A stretch of DNA of 64,000 bases from a virus, in the IMG/VR virus record IMGVR_UViG_3300045256_000094. One strand, 5' to 3'. This document shows, in pieces, positions 12,599 through 54,155 of this stretch. Each line of letters starts with the position of its first letter. Within the stretch, counting starts at the first letter, position 1. The translations under genes were made by a program, and so were the position numbers. The notes beneath the pieces were generated by a model. The model made no database searches, had not been told where the DNA came from, and saw nothing but the letters and a program-made list of their open reading frames with translations.

Positions 12599-13401
12599 TA
12601 GACCCCCACGTTGTTTGCCACCACCTGCTGATACAGTCCCCACGCCCGGTGGTTGGGCAGTCGGTTGGCCTGGGTGAAGTGGATGCCGCCCTCTTTCCCC
12701 GTCGGCTTCTGCTGGAAGTCACGGGCCAGGATTTCCACGATCAGCTTCTTGTCGATCCGCACGCTCGGGCTGCGGCTCAGGGCGTACATCAAAAGCCCCT
12801 GCTCGTCGGCCTGCGAGATGTTCGTAAACTTCCCGTGATGCTCCCAGGCGTTTCGGATCGCCCGGCCGAAGTCGTACCCAGGGTAGAAGCCCATCAGCCC
12901 GCTGTTCAGGAACGGCTCCTTCTCCGGGAACAGGTGGTCGTACCGGCCGTAGAACCGGATCGGTTCTTCGAGGATCAACACCTTGTCCTTCGCCGCCAGA
13001 AACTCCTGAATCGGCTTGAGGTTTTGTAACAGCACGATGTCGTTGTCCATGACGATCTCGTGCGTCTCCATACGCATCCGGGCCGGGCACGCCTTCCACA
13101 GCGTCCCGCCGCAGCGGTTGCCGTTCCACTCGAATGAGCCGTCGTCCCGTTGCGGGCTGCGACACTCTTCCTCAATCGGACAGGTCTGCCAGTCCTGCTT
13201 GAAGAAGTGGACCGGCTTGTCCTTCACTCCTTGTTTAAGGAGTTCCAGATTTTCCGGGGAGATGTTATTATAACAGATCATCCAGTCGAACGTGTCCACG
13301 CCGAATGCCTTCTGGGTCATTCGGACTGACTCGATCAGAATGTGGACCCCTTGCGGCAGCGTAGGTCCGATTGTCCAGCGGAACAGCGGTTTTGCGGTCA
13401 T
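12598..13401 (-). CDS. putative glycosyltransferase, FRWTxG / CYNN / xDNDxLL family (paralog A of 3)
   Basis: MTAKPLFRWTIGP...ICYNNISPENLELL...VMDNDIVLL. Paralogs at 21793 and 27509. Confidence 0.5.
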   Translation of the reverse strand: MTAKPLFRWTIGPTLPQGVHILIESVRMTQKAFGVDTFDWMICYNNISPENLELLKQGVKDKPVHFFKQDWQTCPIEEECRSPQRDDGSFEWNGNRCGGTLWKACPARMRMETHEIVMDNDIVLLQNLKPIQEFLAAKDKVLILEEPIRFYGRYDHLFPEKEPFLNSGLMGFYPGYDFGRAIRNAWEHHGKFTNISQADEQGLLMYALSRSPSVRIDKKLIVEILARDFQQKPTGKEGGIHFTQANRLPNHRAWGLYQQVVANNVGV

Positions 13402-13418
13402 ATTGTAATAGAGGAAGA

Positions 13419-14420
13419 ATGCACCAAGAACAGTGGAACGAGTTAGCAAAATACGGGCAGCAGCTTGATTTCAACCTGAAGCGGCTCAACGAAACCAAAG
13501 ACGAGATCGTCAGGGTTCAAGCTATTCTGCAATCCATCATCCAATTGCAGAACAACGACCTGCGGGTAGCTGTGAACCGGCTGGCCGACAGGTTCACCCT
13601 CATGGAACAGCAACTTGCCAACCACGGGCTGCCCAAGATCGACTACTACGACCACGAATTCACGTCGATCAGGAAGCTCGCTGAAAGCCCCGACTGGCCC
13701 CTCGCCGTCGAGGAGATGGTCCGAGACGAGAACTACGAGAAGGCGAAGGCGGCGAACATCCTCGACATGATCGTGATCGAGAACGTGGCCGGAAAGCGTG
13801 TCCTTGATTTCGGTTGTGGCGAAGGCTACCTCACGTCGGCCATCGCAACCAGGGGTGCGGCACTCGCCGTCGGGTACGACCCGGCAGGCAAAGACGAGCG
13901 GTTCCAGAACAAACTCTTGACTAAGGACAAGCTCGTCGCCGCCAACAACGCCCCGTATGACTTCATCGTAGTCTATGATGTGCTGGATCACTGCGAAGAC
14001 CCGGTGGCCGCACTGAAGTTCATTGAGGACTTGGCGTCCATGCAGACGAAGGTGATCGTCCGCAACCACCCGTTCAGTTCCCGCCACGGCAAGCACCTGT
14101 TCACGACCCTCAACCGGGCATTCTTACACATGGTTCTCGACGACATCGAGCTAGTGCGGCTGTGCGGGTCGGCTGGAATGCCGACCAGACCGATCCTGCG
14201 GCCCGTGGCCGAGTACCGTGGGTGGCTCGCCAACACCAAGTTCAACATCGAATTGGAGACGCCGGTGACGACCCCGGTCGAACCGTTCTTCTTGAACCCG
14301 GACAACTACCTCGTCCGGGACAAGCTGGTCGGGAAGTACCAGGGGGAAGACCCGACCCGTTACATGCAAATCGACTTCATGGATTACGTCCTAAAGAAGC
14401 GGACGCAGGTTGTTATATGA
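13419..14420 (+). CDS. class I SAM-dependent methyltransferase (paralog 3)
   Basis: VLDFGCGEGY, DVLDHC and DFMDYVLKK. A GAGGAAG ribosome-binding site lies upstream of the MHQEQW start. Confidence 0.72.
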   Translation: MHQEQWNELAKYGQQLDFNLKRLNETKDEIVRVQAILQSIIQLQNNDLRVAVNRLADRFTLMEQQLANHGLPKIDYYDHEFTSIRKLAESPDWPLAVEEMVRDENYEKAKAANILDMIVIENVAGKRVLDFGCGEGYLTSAIATRGAALAVGYDPAGKDERFQNKLLTKDKLVAANNAPYDFIVVYDVLDHCEDPVAALKFIEDLASMQTKVIVRNHPFSSRHGKHLFTTLNRAFLHMVLDDIELVRLCGSAGMPTRPILRPVAEYRGWLANTKFNIELETPVTTPVEPFFLNPDNYLVRDKLVGKYQGEDPTRYMQIDFMDYVLKKRTQVVI

Positions 14421-15201
14421 TGACCTTCCGGCCTCGCATCCCCTCAACGATGTCACGCAGCTTGGGGATGTTGGGCCAGAACTTGTCCCTGGACGGCAGG
14501 TTGTTGAATTGCTTAACATCGGCCGGGACGGTCTTGTGAACCCTGTACTCGGCCAACAGATTATACTTCTTACAAATCTGGTTGGCCTCCTCGATGGAGG
14601 ACTCGTAGGTGAGGTTGTTACGGTAGTAGTTGTCGCCGTGGAAGCACGCCCTGGTGTGGACGGCGGGCGTCTCGTCAATAATTCCGATCTTGTCCGTCGG
14701 GTTCCCCAATACCATGTTCCACATGAACTCGATGCCCCAATGGGAGTCGTTCTCAGTGAAGGTGTGCTTGAGAGCCTGGAGGCAGACCCGTGAGTAGATC
14801 GGGCACATGATCTCCACCCAATTCGTGAACCGGACTCGGGAGAACGGGACGGCGGCACTGATGGGGATCGAGATGAAGCCGATGATGCCGGGTTGGGCCA
14901 GCATCAGGTCGAACTCCTTGAACGTCCTGAACATCTGGCAGACGCCCTCTGCACTGAGGTAAATGTCGTCGTCCGGCACCCAGATGTTCTGGTAGTGATC
15001 GAGCAAGTCCGGGTTCGCTTCCAGGGCTTGTAACAGAATCTTGTACTTCGTACCCTTGTAGGTCGAGTAGAAGTTCCCTTCCTTCTCGTACCGCCCGGCG
15101 ATCTCGCCGTAGTAGTTGATGTAAACGTCGAAGTCCGGGCAGTGGAGCCAGTGCTGGTGGAGGGAGGAGTCACCAGCGGCGACGAACACGAGATTTTTCA
15201 T
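14413..15201 (-). CDS. putative glycosyltransferase (DUF707-like)
   Basis: 262 aa; IWVPDDDIYL acidic motif. Confidence 0.45.
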   Translation of the reverse strand: MKNLVFVAAGDSSLHQHWLHCPDFDVYINYYGEIAGRYEKEGNFYSTYKGTKYKILLQALEANPDLLDHYQNIWVPDDDIYLSAEGVCQMFRTFKEFDLMLAQPGIIGFISIPISAAVPFSRVRFTNWVEIMCPIYSRVCLQALKHTFTENDSHWGIEFMWNMVLGNPTDKIGIIDETPAVHTRACFHGDNYYRNNLTYESSIEEANQICKKYNLLAEYRVHKTVPADVKQFNNLPSRDKFWPNIPKLRDIVEGMRGRKVII

Positions 15202-15932
15202 AGGCTGTAACCCAATTCCTTTGCGTAAGTCTCAAGCTCGGAACGGACGAGCCGGGACGACAGGTCGTCAGGCGAGAACTTCTTGCAGTTCTTCTTGTAA
15301 AAAGTGTTCTCGTCCTGTTGGACGGCCGGGGCGGTGCGGCCAATGAACTCGCCAAGTTTAACAGATGCGTCTTCGATCTTCAAGAATAAGTGGTTGCGAT
15401 TCTTGAGCAGGTCTTGGATCATGCCGTTCCACCGGATGTAGTACATCGCACACCGCTCGACCGGACTGAGGGCAGAATTCATCAACTCCGGGACCACGGC
15501 GTAGATGACATTTTCGTACCGACGAGTGATCTCGTTCCACGGGCAGGGCATGTGGTAGCTGAAGTAGTCCAGGTAGTGACAAAAAGACTGGATAACGGCG
15601 ACCGGGTGGCGAACCACATGAACCATCTGCGTGTCCTTCAGGCAGTCGTGGTTGAGGTACGGGGCTGCCAGATAGCTCGACTCGGCCCGCAACTGACCGG
15701 AATCGACGTAAGCCTCAAGGCGGGTGATGGTTCCGTCCGGGTGGACACGCATCTGGGACGCATCGCTCAGTGAAACCGGCTCTAAGCCGCTGAGTCGTCC
15801 GAGGGCGGCACCCAGCCCCCGGTAGTCGAAGATGGCTTCGTGCCCGCAGGGGATTCCCGCCGCCGAGAGGTATTTTGCACAATAAACTGTTCCGCACCGG
15901 CCCGTGCCTGTGATAAGATAGTCGAGCTTCAT
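15198..15932 (-). CDS. sulfotransferase-like protein
   Basis: The N-terminal MKLDYLITGTGRCGTVY resembles a 5'-PSB/P-loop motif. Shares an ATGA overlap with the downstream gene. Confidence 0.45.
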   Translation of the reverse strand: MKLDYLITGTGRCGTVYCAKYLSAAGIPCGHEAIFDYRGLGAALGRLSGLEPVSLSDASQMRVHPDGTITRLEAYVDSGQLRAESSYLAAPYLNHDCLKDTQMVHVVRHPVAVIQSFCHYLDYFSYHMPCPWNEITRRYENVIYAVVPELMNSALSPVERCAMYYIRWNGMIQDLLKNRNHLFLKIEDASVKLGEFIGRTAPAVQQDENTFYKKNCKKFSPDDLSSRLVRSELETYAKELGYSL

Positions 15933-15955
15933 GACCTAAAAGAGAAGGGGACCGC

Positions 15956-16681
15956 ATGATTCTGGACGAGCTACACAAGAAGAAACTGATCGCACCGCCG
16001 CACTTCATCCTGGCGAACACTCAGTACCTCACGATCATGGGCAGCAACGCCTACGGCGTGGCGGACACGAACGTCAAGGACAAGGTGCCGGACTTCGATG
16101 TCTACGGCTTCTGCATCCCGCCGAAGGAGTACATCTTCCCGCACCTGCGTGGGGAGATTCCGGGGTTCGGGACGGCCGGGACGAAGTTCGACCAGTGGCA
16201 GCAGCCCCACATCCTCGACCCGGACGCCAACATGGGCCGGGGCAAGGAGTGGGACTTCCAAATCTTCAACATCGTGAAGATGTTCGAACTCTGCCGCCAG
16301 GGCAACCCGAACATGCTGGACTCCCTGTTCACCCCGGAGAACTGCATCGTTCACATCACCCAGGTCGGCCGGAAGGTCCGGGACAATCGGAAGCTGTTCG
16401 TTAGCAAACTGGTCTGGGACAAGTTCCGGGGCTACGCCTTCTCCCAGATGGCAAAGCTAGAAAGCAAACAAAGCCGTGGACTTAACGCAGTGAAGAAATT
16501 CGAAGAAGACCACGAGATCAGCAATAAGACCAAAATGCAAGATATTTTGGCGGAAATTCGCAGACGTGGCTTAAAGTTCGAGCCATCTAACGTAAATAAG
16601 CGTAGTCAGCGATTAAAGGAGATACATGGCTCGACCAAAAGGGATTCCGATGTCGGAGGAACAGAAACGTCAACAGAGTGA
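15956..16681 (+). CDS. PF10127-type nucleotidyltransferase, N-terminal half (RNA-repair-associated Pol-beta superfamily); probably interrupted
   Basis: IMGSNAYGVADTNVKDKVPDFDVYGF (GS...D.D NTase motif). The 3' part of the ORF runs into a low-GC insertion that carries a homing endonuclease. Confidence 0.5.
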   Translation: MILDELHKKKLIAPPHFILANTQYLTIMGSNAYGVADTNVKDKVPDFDVYGFCIPPKEYIFPHLRGEIPGFGTAGTKFDQWQQPHILDPDANMGRGKEWDFQIFNIVKMFELCRQGNPNMLDSLFTPENCIVHITQVGRKVRDNRKLFVSKLVWDKFRGYAFSQMAKLESKQSRGLNAVKKFEEDHEISNKTKMQDILAEIRRRGLKFEPSNVNKRSQRLKEIHGSTKRDSDVGGTETSTE

Positions 16682-17225
16682 GCGATTTCGTGGAGATGGA
16701 AATCCTTTCCACGGTCGTAAGCACTCTCAGGACAGCATCGCCAAGATGTCTGGAACAAGGGGGGAGATAGCGGGTCAAAACAACCCTCTGGTTCGTGCGA
16801 TACAGAACGATCCAGAAAAGGTTAAACAACTCAGCGACCTGCGTAAGAAGATTTGGGCAGATATGTTGCCTGAAAAGAAAAATGCTATCTTTGCTAAGAA
16901 ACGAACAGGCGTAGGAGAAATCAGCGGAGAGTTCTGGGCACGGGTAAAAAGTAATGCAAAGTCCCGTGGACACGCAGTCGAGATCACCGTACAGCAAGCG
17001 TGGGACTTATTCTGTACACAAGGCAAATCTTGTGCGTTATCGGGAGAGCCGCTGAGTTTTGATAAATCCAACTGCACAGCTTCGCTGGATAGGAAAGATT
17101 CTTCCAAGAACTACACCCTGGACAATGTTCAGTGGGTACACAAAACAGTAAACAAAATGAAAAACACACTCTCAGATACAGAGCTTCGAGAGTGGTGTTT
17201 GAAAATCACGAGGAGTATAACATGA
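16440..17225 (+). mobile_element. low-GC insertion carrying an HNH homing endonuclease gene (possible intron or free-standing HEG that splits a gene)
   Basis: GC falls to roughly 40-45%, compared with about 58% in the flanks. It sits between two halves of one nucleotidyltransferase. Confidence 0.5.
16626..17225 (+). CDS. HNH homing endonuclease with NUMOD3 repeats
   Basis: The N-terminal region has NUMOD3-like GIPMSEEQKRQQSE and GRKHSQDSIAKMS repeats. The C-terminal region has the HNH motif ASLDRKDSSKNYTLDNVQWVHKTVN. Confidence 0.75.
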   Translation: MARPKGIPMSEEQKRQQSERFRGDGNPFHGRKHSQDSIAKMSGTRGEIAGQNNPLVRAIQNDPEKVKQLSDLRKKIWADMLPEKKNAIFAKKRTGVGEISGEFWARVKSNAKSRGHAVEITVQQAWDLFCTQGKSCALSGEPLSFDKSNCTASLDRKDSSKNYTLDNVQWVHKTVNKMKNTLSDTELREWCLKITRSIT

Positions 17226-17680
17226 ATAACCTTGAATCGCTTACTGATAAAGAACTGTTTGAGTATGCCCAACTCTACGACAACATGCTAGGTGAGAGCG
17301 AGCGAGCAGAGTATGTGAAGTTTCATTCTTACGACGTAAAGTTCGGCTATCATTTGTTAAGACTACTGGACGAAGCTCAGCAGCTTCTCGAAACCGGCGA
17401 GATGGACTTGCAGCGGGCGAAGGAGCCGATGAAGGCCATCCGGCGGGGCGAGTGGAAGAAGGAGGACTTGGTTAAGTGGGCGCAGGACAAGGCCGCAGAA
17501 CTTGACGTGGCGTTCACGAACACCAAGCTCCCCCAGAAGCCGGACGAAGTGCAACTCAAGAAGCTCCTGATCGAGTGCCTTGAGATGCACTACGGCTCGC
17601 TCGACAAGGCGTTCCACCTGCCCGGCAAGGAGGAACACCTGCTCCAGCAGATCGCTGCTATGGTGAGGGAATACGCCTAA
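17222..17680 (+). CDS. PF10127-type nucleotidyltransferase, C-terminal helical half
   Basis: YDVKFGYHLLRLLDEAQQLLETGEMDLQR...IRRGEWKKEDLVKWA matches the C-terminal region of that family. Its ATG overlaps the HEG stop (ATGA). Confidence 0.5.
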   Translation: MNNLESLTDKELFEYAQLYDNMLGESERAEYVKFHSYDVKFGYHLLRLLDEAQQLLETGEMDLQRAKEPMKAIRRGEWKKEDLVKWAQDKAAELDVAFTNTKLPQKPDEVQLKKLLIECLEMHYGSLDKAFHLPGKEEHLLQQIAAMVREYA

Positions 17681-17683
17681 AGA

Positions 17684-17744
17684 AACACAATCCATCAGTG
17701 TATTTTTCGCTCTCGGAAGTGAAGATACACTGATGGATTGTGTT
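17684..17744 (+). promoter_or_regulatory. perfect 20-bp inverted repeat (21-nt loop) enclosing the start codon of the next gene
   Basis: aacacaatccatcagtgtat (17684-17703) pairs with atacactgatggattgtgtt (17725-17744). The ATG at 17733 lies in the right arm and the purine-rich SD-like stretch lies in the loop. Confidence 0.4.
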
Positions 17745-18554
17745 GTGCCACTGCTGCTGTCCGCCGACTTGGGGCGGTTCGACCTGCTCTGCGACTCCAT
17801 TGCGCACTTCTACCCAAGCATCACCAACCTCTTTGCCATCGTCCGTGGCGATCCACCGAAGGCCCGCCACCCGTTCATTAAGTGGATCAAAGAGGAAGAA
17901 CTGCTCTCCCGAGATTGGCTCGCCCCCACGGTCGAAGGCTGGTATCGGCAGCAGGCATTGAAGCTGATCGCCCACAAACTCGTCACCACCGACTTTTACT
18001 GGTGCCTCGACGCTGACTGTTTCTTCGTGCGGCCCTTCGAGCCGAGGTTCATTATTGAAGACAACCGGGTCGGCATCCACGTTTACCGGAAGGGAGACAT
18101 AGACTGGTGGACGACGGACGCCGGGCAAGCCCTGGACGTGCCCCTCAAGCGGATGATCCACCACTACTACGACGTGACCCCGAACGTGTTCTCACGCCGG
18201 GCGATGATCGTCACCGAACAGTTCTTCATGATGAAGTTCGGCAGTTGGCAACGGGCGTTGTTGGAACGGCTGCCGTGGACGGAATACCAGCTTCACTATG
18301 GGCTGATGGAATACCTACGGCTGTTCACAATGTTCTACTTCTACGATCAGTTCAGCTACGGCAACAACATCATCTGGTATCGTGACGACATCAAAGACGT
18401 TAAACAACATGTGCAACGGCAGATGTACAAGAGCCACACCGGCTACATTTCGTTGATTCAGTCCAACCAAGCCACCCCGGTCCACGTCTACGCCGAGGAG
18501 GTAAGCCAACTCTGGCTTGACCCGTCAAAGCAGTACGATATTCCGGTGCTTTAA
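17733..18554 (+). CDS. hypothetical protein (glycosyltransferase-like, DxD motif)
   Basis: 273 aa; WCLDADCFF. Confidence 0.4.
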   Translation: MDCVVPLLLSADLGRFDLLCDSIAHFYPSITNLFAIVRGDPPKARHPFIKWIKEEELLSRDWLAPTVEGWYRQQALKLIAHKLVTTDFYWCLDADCFFVRPFEPRFIIEDNRVGIHVYRKGDIDWWTTDAGQALDVPLKRMIHHYYDVTPNVFSRRAMIVTEQFFMMKFGSWQRALLERLPWTEYQLHYGLMEYLRLFTMFYFYDQFSYGNNIIWYRDDIKDVKQHVQRQMYKSHTGYISLIQSNQATPVHVYAEEVSQLWLDPSKQYDIPVL

Positions 18555-19256
18555 CGTCTTGTACAACTCAACGAACTGGTCGTAGTACGGCTTAGCCCAG
18601 GATATGACCTTTGGTAACGGCGGGATGCGCAGAGACGACATCACATAGTTGTTTCTGATCGCCGATGTTGACCCGGCGTGCCAGAGGTAGACGTTGAGCG
18701 GCACGTTCGAGCTAACGTGCCGCAGCCCGAGTTCGACCGTGTAGCGGCTGGCGTACTCGTGGTGAAACAGGATGCGGGCGAGCATCTTGGGCGGGAGTTG
18801 CCGCAGCACCCCCACTCGGACTGCGTAGTTGCTGCACCACATCTTCTTGTTGTTGTCCCGCCAGTAGTGAAAGTTGCAGTGATCGGCGGTCTGGAACACC
18901 ATCACGTTCCACTCGAACATGTCGCAGTTCGGAGGGGCGGTGATCCCCTCCGAGTACCAGTCGTCGTCGTCCAGCGGGAGGATGAAGTCGTCGTCGCTGA
19001 GATTGTTATCCTTGAAGGTGGCGTTCAGGGCGTACATCGAGTTGAACTCGACGTTCAATATGTCCTCGTAGCCAATCACAGGGTAGCTGGCGAGGCTTTG
19101 CTTGCTGATCTCGGCCAGCCGTTTACGATAACTTCGCCACGAACGGCCAGCGATGTACTCCCACTGGTGTATTTTGTACGAAGTTAAACCAAACAGGTAC
19201 TCGCCGGTCGGGTTCGACCAATTTTCAAACCTTCGCCGCATCGGAATAACTCTCAT
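18525..19256 (-). CDS. hypothetical protein
   Basis: 243-aa ORF with an ILPLDDDDW acidic motif. Confidence 0.4.
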   Translation of the reverse strand: MRVIPMRRRFENWSNPTGEYLFGLTSYKIHQWEYIAGRSWRSYRKRLAEISKQSLASYPVIGYEDILNVEFNSMYALNATFKDNNLSDDDFILPLDDDDWYSEGITAPPNCDMFEWNVMVFQTADHCNFHYWRDNNKKMWCSNYAVRVGVLRQLPPKMLARILFHHEYASRYTVELGLRHVSSNVPLNVYLWHAGSTSAIRNNYVMSSLRIPPLPKVISWAKPYYDQFVELYKTLKHRNIVLL

Positions 19257-19261
19257 AGGGT

Positions 19262-20014
19262 ATGGTATGCACCTTCATCATCCCTTTCCCCTCCGCACGG
19301 ATAGATAATGTCCTGCAAACGGTCCGCTTCCTGGGGCGGAACCACCCGGAGGTTTGCAAAGAATCTGAGATCATCTTCTCATGCCAGGACCGCTGCGGCA
19401 ACATCCCCAACCCGTTCAAAAAAGACCGTCTCATCAACCTGGAAACGGACTGCATGAGGAAATCCAAGATGATGAACGAGGCGGCGAAGGTGGCGTCGTC
19501 CGACTTGCTCGTGTTCCTCGACAGCGACCGGGTGCTACCGGCCGGGTATTTCGACAAGGTGGTGCGGAACTACCAGCCCGGCACGGCCGTCTCCACGAAG
19601 AACATGTGGCGGCTCACAGAACCGGCCTCCGACGAGGACATCATCGCCGGAAAGTTCAAGTACGAGTTAGAAAACAAAGACACGACCAACAAAGCGTGGA
19701 CTCGGACCATGTTCGCCGGGAACTGTACCGTCAGTAAAGCCGACTTCTGGCGGGTCGGCGGGTGTGACGAGTCGTACCACGGGTACGGGTTCGAGGATCA
19801 CGACATGACCCGTACCCTGGAAACCGGAGGCGTCAAGTTCGTCTGGCACGAGGACATTGAACTCCATCTCTGGCACCCGAGGCTAACTTACGGCAAAGGC
19901 GACCAGAAGAAGATGTTCATCATGAACGGGTTGCGTTACTGCAAGAAGTGGAGTCTGCCCATTCCGCCGGAGCTACAGGTGGAGATGGGCACTTATACGA
20001 AGGGGATGATCTAA
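19262..20014 (+). CDS. family 2 glycosyltransferase (galactosyltransferase-like C-terminal motif)
   Basis: LVFLDSDRVL...GGCDESYHGYGFEDHDM. Confidence 0.68.
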   Translation: MVCTFIIPFPSARIDNVLQTVRFLGRNHPEVCKESEIIFSCQDRCGNIPNPFKKDRLINLETDCMRKSKMMNEAAKVASSDLLVFLDSDRVLPAGYFDKVVRNYQPGTAVSTKNMWRLTEPASDEDIIAGKFKYELENKDTTNKAWTRTMFAGNCTVSKADFWRVGGCDESYHGYGFEDHDMTRTLETGGVKFVWHEDIELHLWHPRLTYGKGDQKKMFIMNGLRYCKKWSLPIPPELQVEMGTYTKGMI

Positions 20015-20943
20015 TGGAATGCGTTGTCTACCACTGGTGGGCAGAGGACTACGATGCCCAGCCCGCAGAGAACCTGCGCACCCCGCTCATCCACTCCATC
20101 GCCAGCCTGCGTGCGGTTGACAAGACCATCCCGGTTTACGTCCTAGACGGCAGCAAGAAGCCGCTCAACTGGCACTACTGGTCGAGCAGCCTGCGGTTCA
20201 AGCTGATCCCGATCACCTTCAGTTACGAAGAGAAGTACGCCGACAAGCCCGGCTACAAGAACTTGTCCCGGATCGAGGACATCTGGAAGTGCGAGCTTCC
20301 CGAGGAGAAGATCATCTACTCGGACGCCGACGTGTTCTGGATCAAGAGTCCCAGGCCGACGACGTTCGACGGCCAGCGGTTCACCTTCAACAAATACAAC
20401 AGCGGTTTCTTTTACTACGACAAGACATCGCCGCTGGTCAAGGACTTCCACGAACTGTGGCACGCCTACATCATCACGGCGTTGAACGACGAGAACTTCC
20501 GAATCCTGAGCCGTCAGTACACAGACTACCGGGAGTGGTACTTCGTGCTGGACGAGACGGTGCTAACGTACATGGCGTACAAGCTGCCACGGTTCTTCGA
20601 CATCGTGGACACGAACGAACACTGCACCCTGGGCATGGCGGCTCAGCAGATGCCGTCGCCCGACAAGATCAAAATGTTCCACACGCACGGCGTCCTGGTC
20701 AAAGACGTGTTCACACACAGCGAACATGCCCGTGGACTGACGCCCCTGTTGATTAAGGAATGCTGGGACTCGCTCCAGGGACTCGGCGAAGAGAAGGTGA
20801 AGCAGTTGTACCGGCCGCAATACCTGGAGAAGTACCTTCCGTACCAGCGGTCCCTGTTCGACCCCGAGTTCGAGAAGGTACTTCGAGAGAGTAAAAACGA
20901 AAAGGGCTTGTGCCGGTTGACACAAGCCCTGCGGGTTACTTGA
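20014..20943 (+). CDS. hypothetical protein, nucleotide-sugar-transferase-like
   Basis: Starts MECVVYHWW with a TAATG overlap on the upstream stop; contains IYSDADVFWI. Confidence 0.4.
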   Translation: MECVVYHWWAEDYDAQPAENLRTPLIHSIASLRAVDKTIPVYVLDGSKKPLNWHYWSSSLRFKLIPITFSYEEKYADKPGYKNLSRIEDIWKCELPEEKIIYSDADVFWIKSPRPTTFDGQRFTFNKYNSGFFYYDKTSPLVKDFHELWHAYIITALNDENFRILSRQYTDYREWYFVLDETVLTYMAYKLPRFFDIVDTNEHCTLGMAAQQMPSPDKIKMFHTHGVLVKDVFTHSEHARGLTPLLIKECWDSLQGLGEEKVKQLYRPQYLEKYLPYQRSLFDPEFEKVLRESKNEKGLCRLTQALRVT

Positions 20944-21693
20944 GAAGGTCTAACTCGCCCTTCATGATCGCCTTGATGTTCGTCACCTTCTTGTTGGTCC
21001 GGTGATCGGTAACTCGACTCTCCATGAAGTTGTAGGTTCTGATCTTCTGCCCACGGCTGCCGTCGCCGAGCGTCTTGCGACGGAACTCGGAGTATTCCTT
21101 GTCGGCGGCTGCCTTCCGTTTGTCCTGAACACGGGCCGTCATGATCCTGATGGCGTCCCGCTTGTTGGAGTGCTGGTCCCGGCCGTTAATGAACACCGTG
21201 ATGCCAGTCTCCTTGTGCTTCACCCGCACGGCACTCTCGGTCTTGTTCTGGTGCTGACCACCAGGACCGTGCCCGCACTGAGTCGTCACTTCGTACTCGT
21301 CTTCCTTGATCGGCTCCCACACGTCCTCCTTGATCGGCAGGACGCCGACGGAGATCATGGAAGTTTGTTTACGGCCTTTGGATTCCGTCTCCGGGACACG
21401 CTGGCAGCAGTGACCGCCGCTCTCGCTCTTGAAGGCATCCCAGACCCCGTTGCCGGTGATCTTGGCGATGCAGTGCCCTTCGGACGTGTGAATCAGTTCA
21501 GACTTGAAGCCCTTCGTGTTGGCGTACTTGATGTACGCTGCGAAGAGTTCATCGACGAATATCTTGGAGTCCGCACCGCCCTCCCCGAACCGTAGTTCGA
21601 GGATGATTTCTTTGGCCTGCTCAAAGACTCCTCCACTTGTCCCCCATCTTCTTCATGGGGTCAAAGCGACCCCCTATTGTTGTGCTTACTCAT
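20936..21693 (-). CDS. class I release factor lacking domain 1 (RF1-like PxT = PET; PrfH-like architecture), with programmed +1 frameshift(s) in its leader
   Basis: The body aligns to RF1 domains 2-4: LELRFGEGGADS...IAKITGNGVWDAFKSESGGHCCQRVPETESKGRKQTS...GPGGQHQNKTESAVRV...RTYNFMESRVTDHR. The RF frame has no ATG/GTG/TTG upstream of M(21358) back to a TGA. The leader holds ATG(21691-21693)...AGGGGG-TCG-CTT-TGA-C followed by ATG AAG AAG ATG...GGAGGAGT-CTT-TGA-G. Confidence 0.7.
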
Positions 21694-45011: not shown

Positions 45012-45285
45012 CCCAGCCTACACGGCCTCCACCTTACGGCTTCAGCCTCGGCCAGATGTGAGTTCCACGGTACGGTCCCAGGTATTGCTACCTGGGGTGC
45101 CGTCGTTCGGCACGCTTGTCGCACACCCTTGCGGGGTACAGTACCCTAGCTATTACGCTTTGGGATCAAGCTCGCTATCACCCTTACGGTGTTCGCAACC
45201 TTAGACTCGTCAAGATGTAATCCCTCTACCTGTACCTGATTCATCACCAAGTACAAGCATCCTTGCGGACAGCATTCTTCCCGAG

Positions 45286-45356
45286 TAGCCCCTACAGGAG
45301 TCGAACCTGTTCGACCTCTTTAGGAAAGAGGCACGCTTCCGTCACATCCAGGGGCC
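45286..45356 (-). tRNA. tRNA-Arg (anticodon CCU)
   Basis: Hand-folded 71-nt cloverleaf: acceptor GGCCCCU/AGGGGCU, anticodon arm CCUCU-UUCCUAA-AGAGG, T-arm ACAGG-UUCGACU-CCUGU. The D-stem has two G·U pairs. Confidence 0.55.
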
Positions 45357-49207: not shown

Positions 49208-49248
49208 AACAAAAAAGACAGGGGAGGCAATCGCCTCCCCTGTCTTTT
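49208..49248. terminator. strong rho-independent terminator (12-bp GC-rich stem, T-runs on both strands)
   Basis: gacaggggaggc-aatc-gcctcccctgtc flanked by a6 and t4. Confidence 0.6.
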
Positions 49249-53985: not shown

Positions 53986-54064
53986 TGCGGTTTCTCAAGA
54001 ACAACGTGGTTAGGACGAACCGGCCGTTCTCTTGGTAATAATCTCGTCCCTCTTGTAACATGAG

Positions 54065-54155
54065 TCGGGGTGTCGGGATTCGAACCCGATCCGGTGGGTT
54101 AATCGGACCCTATACCGATTATAAGTCGGCCCGTTCTGCCAGTAACTCCACCCCG
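54065..54155 (-). tRNA. class II-like tRNA (91 nt, long variable region); anticodon loop CUUAUAA, so the anticodon is possibly UAU and the identity is uncertain
   Basis: Acceptor CGGGGUG/CACCCCG (7/7 pairs), 3-bp D-stem GUU/AAC, T-arm UCGGG-UUCGAAU-CCCGA. Confidence 0.5.

Follow-up and report, generated by a model that had tools for sequence, protein, structure and literature searches.

What becomes of a phage enzyme gene when a homing endonuclease gene (HEG) lies within it? The question is raised by a locus within positions 15956-17744 of IMG/VR virus record IMGVR_UViG_3300045256_000094, a stretch of 64,000 nucleotides (nt) that we refer to as the window, where the open reading frames (ORFs) for two parts of a nucleotidyltransferase (NTase) flank an ORF for an endonuclease. 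An earlier note on this DNA had offered two explanations, a free-standing HEG that has split the gene into two separately translated pieces, or a group I-like intron with an ORF inside it. Our analysis favours the first. We put at about 80% the probability that a free-standing HEG has inserted in a surface loop of a long-form PF10127/RlaP-type NTase gene of a large phage, with the mechanism that is set out below. The ORF listing gives all three ORFs at the positions that had been reported, and the features on which the argument rests are these.

15956-16681, plus strand: N-half of the NTase (ORF1), 241 amino acids (aa), of which residues 1-204 (15956-16567) are homologous to intact NTases
16616-16621, plus strand: Shine-Dalgarno sequence (SD) AAGGAG, 4 nt upstream of the HEG ATG, read from the sequence
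16626-17225, plus strand: HEG, probably free-standing, 199 aa, with NUMOD3 at aa 8-60 and an HNH-fold nuclease domain at about aa 95-195
17210-17215, plus strand: SD GAGGAG, 6 nt upstream of the ORF2 ATG and within the 3' end of the HEG, read from the sequence
17222-17680, plus strand: C-half of the NTase (ORF2), 152 aa, helical domain, with its own ATG overlapping the HEG stop (ATGA)

The two halves and the endonuclease between them

ORF1 had been proposed to carry the N-terminal catalytic part of PF10127 and ORF2 the C-terminal helical region of the same family, and both assignments hold. In the Pfam scan ORF1 matches PF10127 RlaP with 37.4 bits (gathering cutoff 23) and E 3e-9, aa 21-172 falling on profile positions 19-144 of 249, and it has the Pol-beta catalytic signature (G29 S30, D46, D48 and D100), which is invariant in the homologue alignments. 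ORF2 alone has no match in the Pfam scan, PF10127 included, and its family assignment therefore had to rest on PHROG profiles and on intact homologues. The PHROG search places ORF1 on positions 33-222 of the 351 positions of phrog_388 'nucleotidyltransferase' (E 4e-25), and ORF2 on positions 234-339, the C-terminal part of the same profile (E 7e-19). Both ORFs are colinear with the uninterrupted proteins P0003 and CcrBL9 gp117, and as far as sequence can tell this confirms them as N- and C-terminal parts of one PF10127/RlaP-type NTase rather than two unrelated proteins.

ORF1 and ORF2 are in one reading frame and the HEG is in another. The NTase sequence breaks off after ...AEIRRR(G) in ORF1, at about nt 16568, and is taken up again with (MNN)LESLTDKEL in ORF2, at nt 17222, the homology of ORF2 to intact NTases starting at about residue 3-4. 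Residues 205-241 of ORF1 form a 37-aa read-through tail into the inserted cassette, which has no homology and overlaps the start of the HEG by 56 nt in a different frame. Relative to the intact allele the insert is about 655 nt, with 600 nt accounted for by the HEG ORF and about 55 nt non-coding. The overlap of the HEG stop with the ATG of the second half, which the earlier note had pointed out, can be read directly, the ATG being at 17222-17224 and the TGA at 17223-17225.

With regard to the endonuclease itself, it had been described as NUMOD3 plus HNH. The NUMOD3 part stands, with a Pfam match at E 2.3e-8, but the nuclease domain matches no Pfam HNH family at E<=1, and the HNH label comes instead from PHROG profiles (aa 99-195 match endonuclease, endonuclease VII and HNH families) and from fold similarity. 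A fold comparison was needed because the HEG product has no match among PDB sequences even at E<=10, and by this comparison the nuclease has the beta-beta-alpha-metal (HNH) fold. It belongs to a family of more than 1100 proteins with the invariant motif CALSG ... TASLDR ... Y ... N ... H ... N, and every residue of the motif is kept in the window HEG, the invariant residues being C136, T151, S153, L154, D155, R156, Y163, N167, H172 and N176. The canonical H-N-H residues are not found, the first His being replaced by Arg, with an LDR motif instead of the usual DH, and the nuclease is a divergent HNH. No paralogue of the HEG was found elsewhere in the 64-kb window.

A 9-bp perfect pairing is possible between UCGAGCCAU (16578-16586) and AUGGCUCGA (16626-16634), the latter holding the HEG start codon, and it resembles the start-occluding hairpins that control other phage HEGs. 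Another split locus, L008, differs at the equivalent place by one base, and the change (A to G) preserves the pairing as G-U. The fold of the stretch at the HEG start is no better than that of shuffles (z -0.2), and a scan of 15600-18000 for sigma-70 promoters and intrinsic terminators gave nothing informative.

The empty site and the low-GC block

A protein search with ORF1 gave 1378 homologues. The closest full-length homologue is P0003 (366 aa), encoded by an uninterrupted gene on contigs L005/L006 from JGI metagenomes, and it aligns to ORF1 residues 1-204 and ORF2 residues 3-152 with 81% identity in each case. These contigs are syntenic with the window, with genes for a 262-aa DUF707-like protein and a 244-aa protein upstream on the opposite strand and a Glyco_transf_7C gene downstream. 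It had been suggested that related phages be compared for an empty site, and L005/L006 provide one: sequence comparison confirms presence/absence polymorphism of the HEG among syntenic relatives. The homologues in cultured phages, namely Caulobacter phage CcrBL9 gp117 and those of Rhizobium phage RHph_I1_18 and Xanthomonas jumbo phages, are also uninterrupted. Comparison with GenBank phages by blastn gave just about 220 bp at 67% identity, in Caulobacter Bertelyvirus phages, and by this measure the window phage has no close cultured relative.

The HEG appears not to have come alone, and the segments concerned are as follows.

16442-17350, plus strand: putative foreign, co-transferred block comprising the 5' NTase arm, leader, HEG and 3' NTase arm, delimited by the switch in identity and in GC at third codon positions (GC3)
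16442-16567, plus strand: 5' NTase arm, ORF1 aa 163-204
17222-17350, plus strand: 3' NTase arm, ORF2 aa 1-43

A stretch of low GC had been reported at roughly 16440-17225. The drop is real, with GC of 0.40-0.50 between about 16400 and 17400 and of 0.55-0.62 around it, but its extent is larger, as it continues to about 17350, some 125 bp into ORF2. The GC3 values are 0.91 for the N core, 0.50 for the 5' arm, 0.48 for the HEG, 0.51 for the 3' arm and 0.83 for the C core, and most other window genes of at least 200 aa have GC3 of 0.74-0.88. The foreign block therefore exceeds the HEG, and includes NTase coding sequence, about 125 bp on each side. A Lys/Glu-rich composition was considered as the source of the low GC of the arms, and rejected because the drop is at third codon positions.

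Identity to relatives changes at the same places. P0003 of the HEG-less L006 has 90% aa identity to the window in the N core and 41% in the central 5' arm, while for P0002 of the split locus L008 the values are 68% and 92%. At the nucleotide level, in codon alignments, most of 15956-16450 is 80-96% identical to L006 and 49-82% to L008; from 16451 to 17350 identity is 42-62% to L006, whereas most 15-codon bins are 83-100% identical to L008, the first bin of ORF2 being at 72%; and over 17396-17665 it is again 82-93% to L006 and 58-84% to L008. The affinity thus switches, at codon level, at about 16450 and at about 17350-17395, and the L008-like block coincides exactly with the low-GC block. The comparison indicates that, in ancestry and codon usage alike, some 125 bp of NTase coding sequence to either side of the HEG goes with the HEG rather than with the remainder of the gene, and this is the footprint to be expected of homing with co-conversion.

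The HEG products of the window and L008 are 87% identical, with a ratio of nonsynonymous to synonymous substitution rates (dN/dS) of 0.07 at dS of about 1.0, and for the NTase arms beside the split the ratio is 0.05 at dS of about 1. Because the ratios are so low at this degree of divergence, the HEG and the adjoining arms have been kept for a long time by strong purifying selection.

Recurrence of the split, mechanism and rival explanations

The split is not peculiar to the window. The 120 closest homologues of ORF1 comprise 73 'short-form' proteins (about 306 aa, without a central segment of about 60 aa), 25 intact 'long-form' proteins, 21 N-halves of about 204-241 aa that end a few residues past the same E-x-x-x-R-R/K motif, and one truncated fragment, P0104 (184 aa). 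No split short-form gene is among these 120. For DNA we examined 80 IMG/VR loci plus contigs holding selected proteins, and the split loci in this sample are L007, L008, L010, L013, L033, L041, L050, L075, L088, L089, L091, L093, L095, L097, L099 and L101. Each split locus that we examined has a HEG, or what is left of one, between the halves, and all the other C-halves examined begin with their own Met at the homologous position. The HEGs fall into four architectures.

Architecture A, NUMOD3 plus HNH-fold: window, L008, L007, L095, L097, L099, L101
Architecture B, helix-turn-helix (HTH) plus Cys-rich module plus the same HNH-fold domain: L013, L089, L093, and broken in L091
Architecture C, HTH plus NUMOD3 plus TnsA-like PD-(D/E)xK domain: L010, L041, L075, L088
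Architecture D, GIY-YIG ORF on the strand opposite to the NTase: L050

The TnsA-like domain in L010 scores 26.0 bits against Pfam PF08722, just below the cutoff of 26.5. Over its first 150 or so aa the L010 HEG has 43% identity (E 5e-33) with the type-A HEG of L007, and the two would seem to have a common DNA-binding part joined to different nucleases. All of the full-length NUMOD3+HNH relatives that were found (7/7) are either inside an NTase gene or immediately upstream of an intact short-form copy (L096, L100), a good indication that this subfamily is dedicated to the NTase gene; among loci found through the nuclease domain alone, just 4/76 adjoin an NTase. At two loci the HEG appears to be decaying. 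The type-B HEG of L091 (3656-4299) is broken into ORFs of 138 and 81 aa, and L033 (4033-4227) has kept the split with a 147-nt gap holding a 64-aa ORF, the end of which resembles by eye the C-terminus of type-C HEGs, with no BLASTP match at E<=1e-3. Both NTase halves are intact in each of these loci.

Other selfish elements were seen in or beside genes of this family. On L003 (LR745208.1, 2620-5294) an intact long-form NTase of 390 aa lies between two paralogous type-B HEGs of 260 and 246 aa; the two HEGs are 50% identical to each other and have the same HNH-fold domain as the window HEG. The NTase homologues of L014 (3339-5603) and L081 (3480-5288) have an in-frame intein with a weak LAGLIDADG_3 match, inside the conserved GYD|C...HGN|TKFAYH motif, a site different from the HEG hotspot. 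In L089 (1158-2767) the split NTase is preceded by a Thg1-like gene and by an ORF of 262 aa that matches LAGLIDADG_3 faintly and may be a further selfish element nearby.

An AlphaFold2 (AF2) model of intact P0003 has a predicted local distance difference test score (pLDDT) of 91.9 and a predicted template modelling score (pTM) of 0.85, and has an N domain of the alpha/beta type and a C part made up of helices alone. In this model the break falls in the loop of residues 210-222, between helices 197-209 and 223-239, where the local pLDDT is about 77, the only internal stretch of reduced confidence in the model. This loop belongs to the central helical insert that is specific to the long form, and the split leaves the whole Pol-beta domain in the N-half and the helical domain in the C-half. 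A Foldseek search of the NTase model against the PDB gave weak matches to Pol-beta NTases (HalB and ANT(4'), E about 1e-2, template modelling scores 0.2-0.4), with the PfRlaP structure not among them; such matches are consistent with a Pol-beta NTase fold and do not prove it. The crystal structure of PfRlaP has an N-terminal NTase domain and a C-terminal helical domain with the substrate cleft between them, the two being held together by a bundle of three helices, of which the C-terminal helix is one (bioRxiv 10.64898/2025.12.29.696909). Given this arrangement, and by analogy with it, non-covalent reassembly of the two halves is plausible.

We suggest the following mechanism. On co-infection the endonuclease would cut HEG-less alleles of the NTase gene, and the break would be repaired from the HEG-bearing allele, the HEG being copied together with about 125-180 bp of flanking NTase coding sequence per side by co-conversion. 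The outcome, as predicted from the sequence, would be a three-cistron unit comprising the N-half, the HEG with its own SD and its start in the tail of the N-half, and the C-half, which has an SD of its own and whose ATG overlaps the HEG stop. The Pol-beta catalytic polypeptide and the helical polypeptide would then reassemble non-covalently into active enzyme, with neither RNA splicing nor protein splicing involved. That a free-standing HEG split the gene, as the earlier note had put first, is supported by the empty site, the separate SD and ATG, the co-conversion mosaic and the recurrence in other phages.

There are nonetheless points that weigh against this account. At dS of about 1 between the window and L008 the transfer would not be recent, and the HEG need not be active today. 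The three sequences compared allow the recombination to be read in either direction, with the window having gained the block or the centre of L006 having been replaced. Finally, the reassembly and activity of the two halves are things that we infer.

The alternative that survives best is that the NTase was already a two-gene enzyme in this lineage and that the HEG settled in the intergenic spacer, so that the split came before the HEG. It differs from the insertion of a HEG into an intact gene solely in the order of events. Free-standing HEGs do prefer intergenic positions (PMC2988022), HEGs of the same subfamily are also found just upstream of intact NTase genes (L096, L100), and L033 is split with almost no insert. 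However, no split locus among those examined lacks a HEG or HEG remnant, the closest relative of the window gene is intact, and on the N-core tree the intact long-form genes, which are just as frequent as the split ones, are scattered among them. We therefore consider this order of events unlikely.

Rather less probable still is that HEG insertion inactivated the NTase and that the two ORFs are remnants of a dispensable gene in decay. Accessory phage genes are often dispensable, and the read-through of ORF1 into a 37-aa tail without homology could be seen in this light. But both halves are intact ORFs in all of the roughly 20 split loci examined, in lineages 42-71% identical to the window N-half; all catalytic and invariant residues are kept; the NTase segments flanking the HEG have dN/dS of 0.05 over dS of about 1; and in L033 and L091 it is the HEG that is degraded or broken while both NTase halves are intact.

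The least probable of the three, and one to which we give very little weight, is the other explanation of the earlier note, in which a self-splicing intron, of group I or group II, carries the endonuclease ORF and splicing of the mRNA restores a continuous NTase frame: group I introns with a HEG inside are frequent in phage genes for nucleic-acid enzymes, and ORF1 and ORF2 are in the same frame, but no Rfam intron family matches 15500-18200, the roughly 55 nt of non-coding insert are too small for a ribozyme core, ORF2 and the other C-halves examined start with their own ATG, preceded in ORF2 by the GAGGAG SD, and the HEG of L050 is on the opposite strand while L033 is split with a 147-nt gap. 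The Rfam scan was run at E<=10 with permissive filters, and gave no match to group I or group II introns or to group II domains. An intein was also considered and rejected, because the HEG is out of frame with the NTase. A split intein was likewise rejected, as the tail of the N-half (LKFEPSN...) is just 37 aa with no Cys/Ser start, and a C-intein of about 35 aa would not fit ahead of the C-half homology to the intact protein, which begins as early as residue 4. With no intron match, an SD and ATG for each of the downstream cistrons and no intein halves, a free-standing HEG is the reading that is supported.

A further proposal concerns the three-helix insert of about 60 aa that distinguishes long-form from short-form NTases. 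It is possible, though we think it doubtful, that this insert is itself part of the mobile element. The HEG cassette would then travel with two coding arms, which extend the C-terminus of the N-half and the N-terminus of the C-half and would serve as assembly domains of the split enzyme, like the tails of Aeh1 NrdA-a and NrdA-b (see below), and later in-frame loss of the HEG would leave the arms as a new internal segment of the protein. The window arms share the foreign codon usage of the HEG (GC3 0.50 vs 0.91 for the N core), and the HEG-less L006 has the same contrast, with GC3 of 0.70, 0.33 and 0.68 for core, arms and core. Of the 18 insert-bearing loci, nearly all have arms with a GC3 below that of the cores. 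The points of recombination fall at the ends of the insert, and among the 120 closest homologues splits are confined to insert-bearing genes; the HEG subfamily also adjoins intact short-form genes (L096, L100). On a neighbour-joining tree of the N core the presence of the insert needs at least 26 gains or losses among 112 sequences by Fitch count, with a mean of 36 and a minimum of 27 changes when the labels are permuted, numbers that are only indicative as they come from 165 aa and a distance tree. The AT-richness of the arms could also have other causes, which weakens the proposal. If it is true, HEG traffic would be creating a protein insertion and spreading it across a gene family.

Neighbouring features, known systems and significance

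Beyond ORF2 there is one further feature of the locus.

17684-17744, plus strand: perfect hairpin of 20 bp (23 nt at 96%) that follows immediately on the ORF2 stop

It had been reported as a 20-bp perfect inverted repeat, and is indeed a strong stem, with a folding free energy (dG) of -38.7 kcal/mol and z of -7.7. It is the longest hairpin in the window and has no second copy there, and the 20-mer has no exact match in IMG/VR. Its 3' arm holds the ATG (17733) and first four codons of a DUF6492 gene (Pfam E 8e-29), and no U-tract follows it. The hairpin is not part of the HEG block, since the conserved C core (17351-17680) lies between them. At this position L006 has an unrelated GC-rich terminator-like hairpin. 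As to its role, the hairpin may mark a site of RNA processing or the 3' end of an RNA, or may block the start of the downstream gene. Its matches to Rfam 'miRNA' families score far below the gathering thresholds and are of a generic kind given by long hairpins, and we rejected them.

A second variable spot, close to the HEG site, follows immediately downstream of the NTase. Window 17681-19260, which has the DUF6492 gene (plus strand) and a 243-aa ORF (minus strand), is not homologous to L006 5100-6085, which has a single 323-aa ORF, in genomes that are otherwise syntenic.

The wider neighbourhood of the NTase in the window (12600-21000), L006, L007 and L093 has methyltransferase, DUF707, sulfotransferase-like, DUF6492 and glycosyltransferase genes, with Glyco_transf_7C recurring downstream of the NTase in all four. 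No RNA ligase or repair genes are near the NTase in these phages, and the association with RNA-repair genes that is typical of RlaP is not seen there. Some homologues do adjoin RNA-related genes (Thg1 and RNase T in L089, aminoacyl-tRNA hydrolase in L001), and the neighbours in Rhizobium phage RHph_I1_18 are aminoacyl-tRNA hydrolase and metallophosphoesterase. The activity expected of RlaP-type NTases is the addition of 1-2 NMP to an RNA 3'-OH. The substrate of the NTase clade to which the window gene belongs may differ from that shown for bacterial RlaP.

Elsewhere in the window, at 54064-54155 and 45285-45356 (both minus strand), there are two tRNA genes, one for Arg(CCT) and one for Ile(TAT). 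The call for Ile(TAT), at 92 nt, is longer than is usual for a tRNA-Ile, and may reflect an intron or insertion or be a miscall. At 49213-49248 an inverted repeat with perfect 16-bp arms, AAAAGACAGGGGAGGC / GCCTCCCCTGTCTTTT, encloses a 4-nt loop and is bordered on either side by A/T runs; it looks like a bidirectional intrinsic terminator.

The arrangement proposed for the window locus has a known counterpart in the nrdA-a / mobE / nrdA-b genes of Aeromonas phage Aeh1, which Friedrich et al. are said to have described in 2007 as 'genes in pieces'. In Aeh1 the HNH-family free-standing HEG mobE splits nrdA into nrdA-a and nrdA-b; mobE overlaps nrdA-b, the GC there is anomalous, and the tails created by the insertion are essential for assembly of the active enzyme (Crona et al. 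2011, PMC3045599). The window locus is similar in having what is probably a free-standing HNH-family HEG within a phage enzyme gene, with two halves that would be separately translated, in the overlap of the HEG with the start of the downstream half, in the local GC anomaly, in the apparent lack of RNA or protein splicing, and in that sequences beside the insertion appear to have arrived with the mobile element. By analogy the locus would work as mobE/nrdA does, and be a new case of a known arrangement. There are also differences. The target in Aeh1 is a ribonucleotide reductase and in the window a Pol-beta/RlaP-type NTase; the Aeh1 split is in the active-site barrel whereas that in the window is in a loop of a lineage-variable helical insert; and the Aeh1 case is from a single phage whereas the NTase split recurs in many lineages (dozens), with four HEG architectures. 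The reassembled Aeh1 enzyme is functional, whereas for the window NTase a functional reassembly is a prediction.

Comparison can also be made with the Seg and Mob HEGs of T4-type phages (PMC2988022, PMC2790892, PMC2330249), which are likewise modular, with a nuclease and NUMOD-type DNA binding, show presence/absence polymorphism and carry flanking DNA by gene conversion. Relatives of the window HEG are, as in those cases, intergenic beside the target gene (L096, L100, L003), but the window HEG is intragenic and interrupts the reading frame of its target, and its nuclease is a divergent HNH with no Pfam match and LDR for the usual DH. The fractured genes with split inteins described by Dassa et al. 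(2009, PMC2677866), also from environmental phage-like sequences, have two ORFs with a free-standing HEG between, and differ in that the window locus has no intein halves. Inteins have been reported in PF10127/IPR018775 nucleotidyltransferases of actinobacteriophages (bioRxiv 10.1101/2025.01.02.630785), so that the same gene family is a known target of selfish elements, and two homologues in our sample, L014 and L081, have an in-frame intein. The inteins have the GYD|..|TKF site and protein splicing, while the window element is out of frame and is not an intein.

The locus seems to be a second case in nature, and one with a far wider distribution, of a free-standing HEG turning an enzyme gene into selected, separately translated pieces. 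The RlaP NTase family has only recently been characterised biochemically, and the naturally split version would therefore point to a place between its catalytic and helical domains where a split is tolerated. HEGs with HNH-fold, TnsA-like PD-(D/E)xK and GIY-YIG nucleases, some with a common NUMOD3 DNA-binding part, all use one loop, and they offer a compact natural data set on the shuffling of nuclease and DNA-binding modules with target specificity kept, of relevance to the engineering of site-specific nucleases. For the annotation of large-phage genomes we suggest that 'nucleotidyltransferase' fragments of about 200 aa and about 150 aa be treated as probably having one function between them, and not as pseudogenes.

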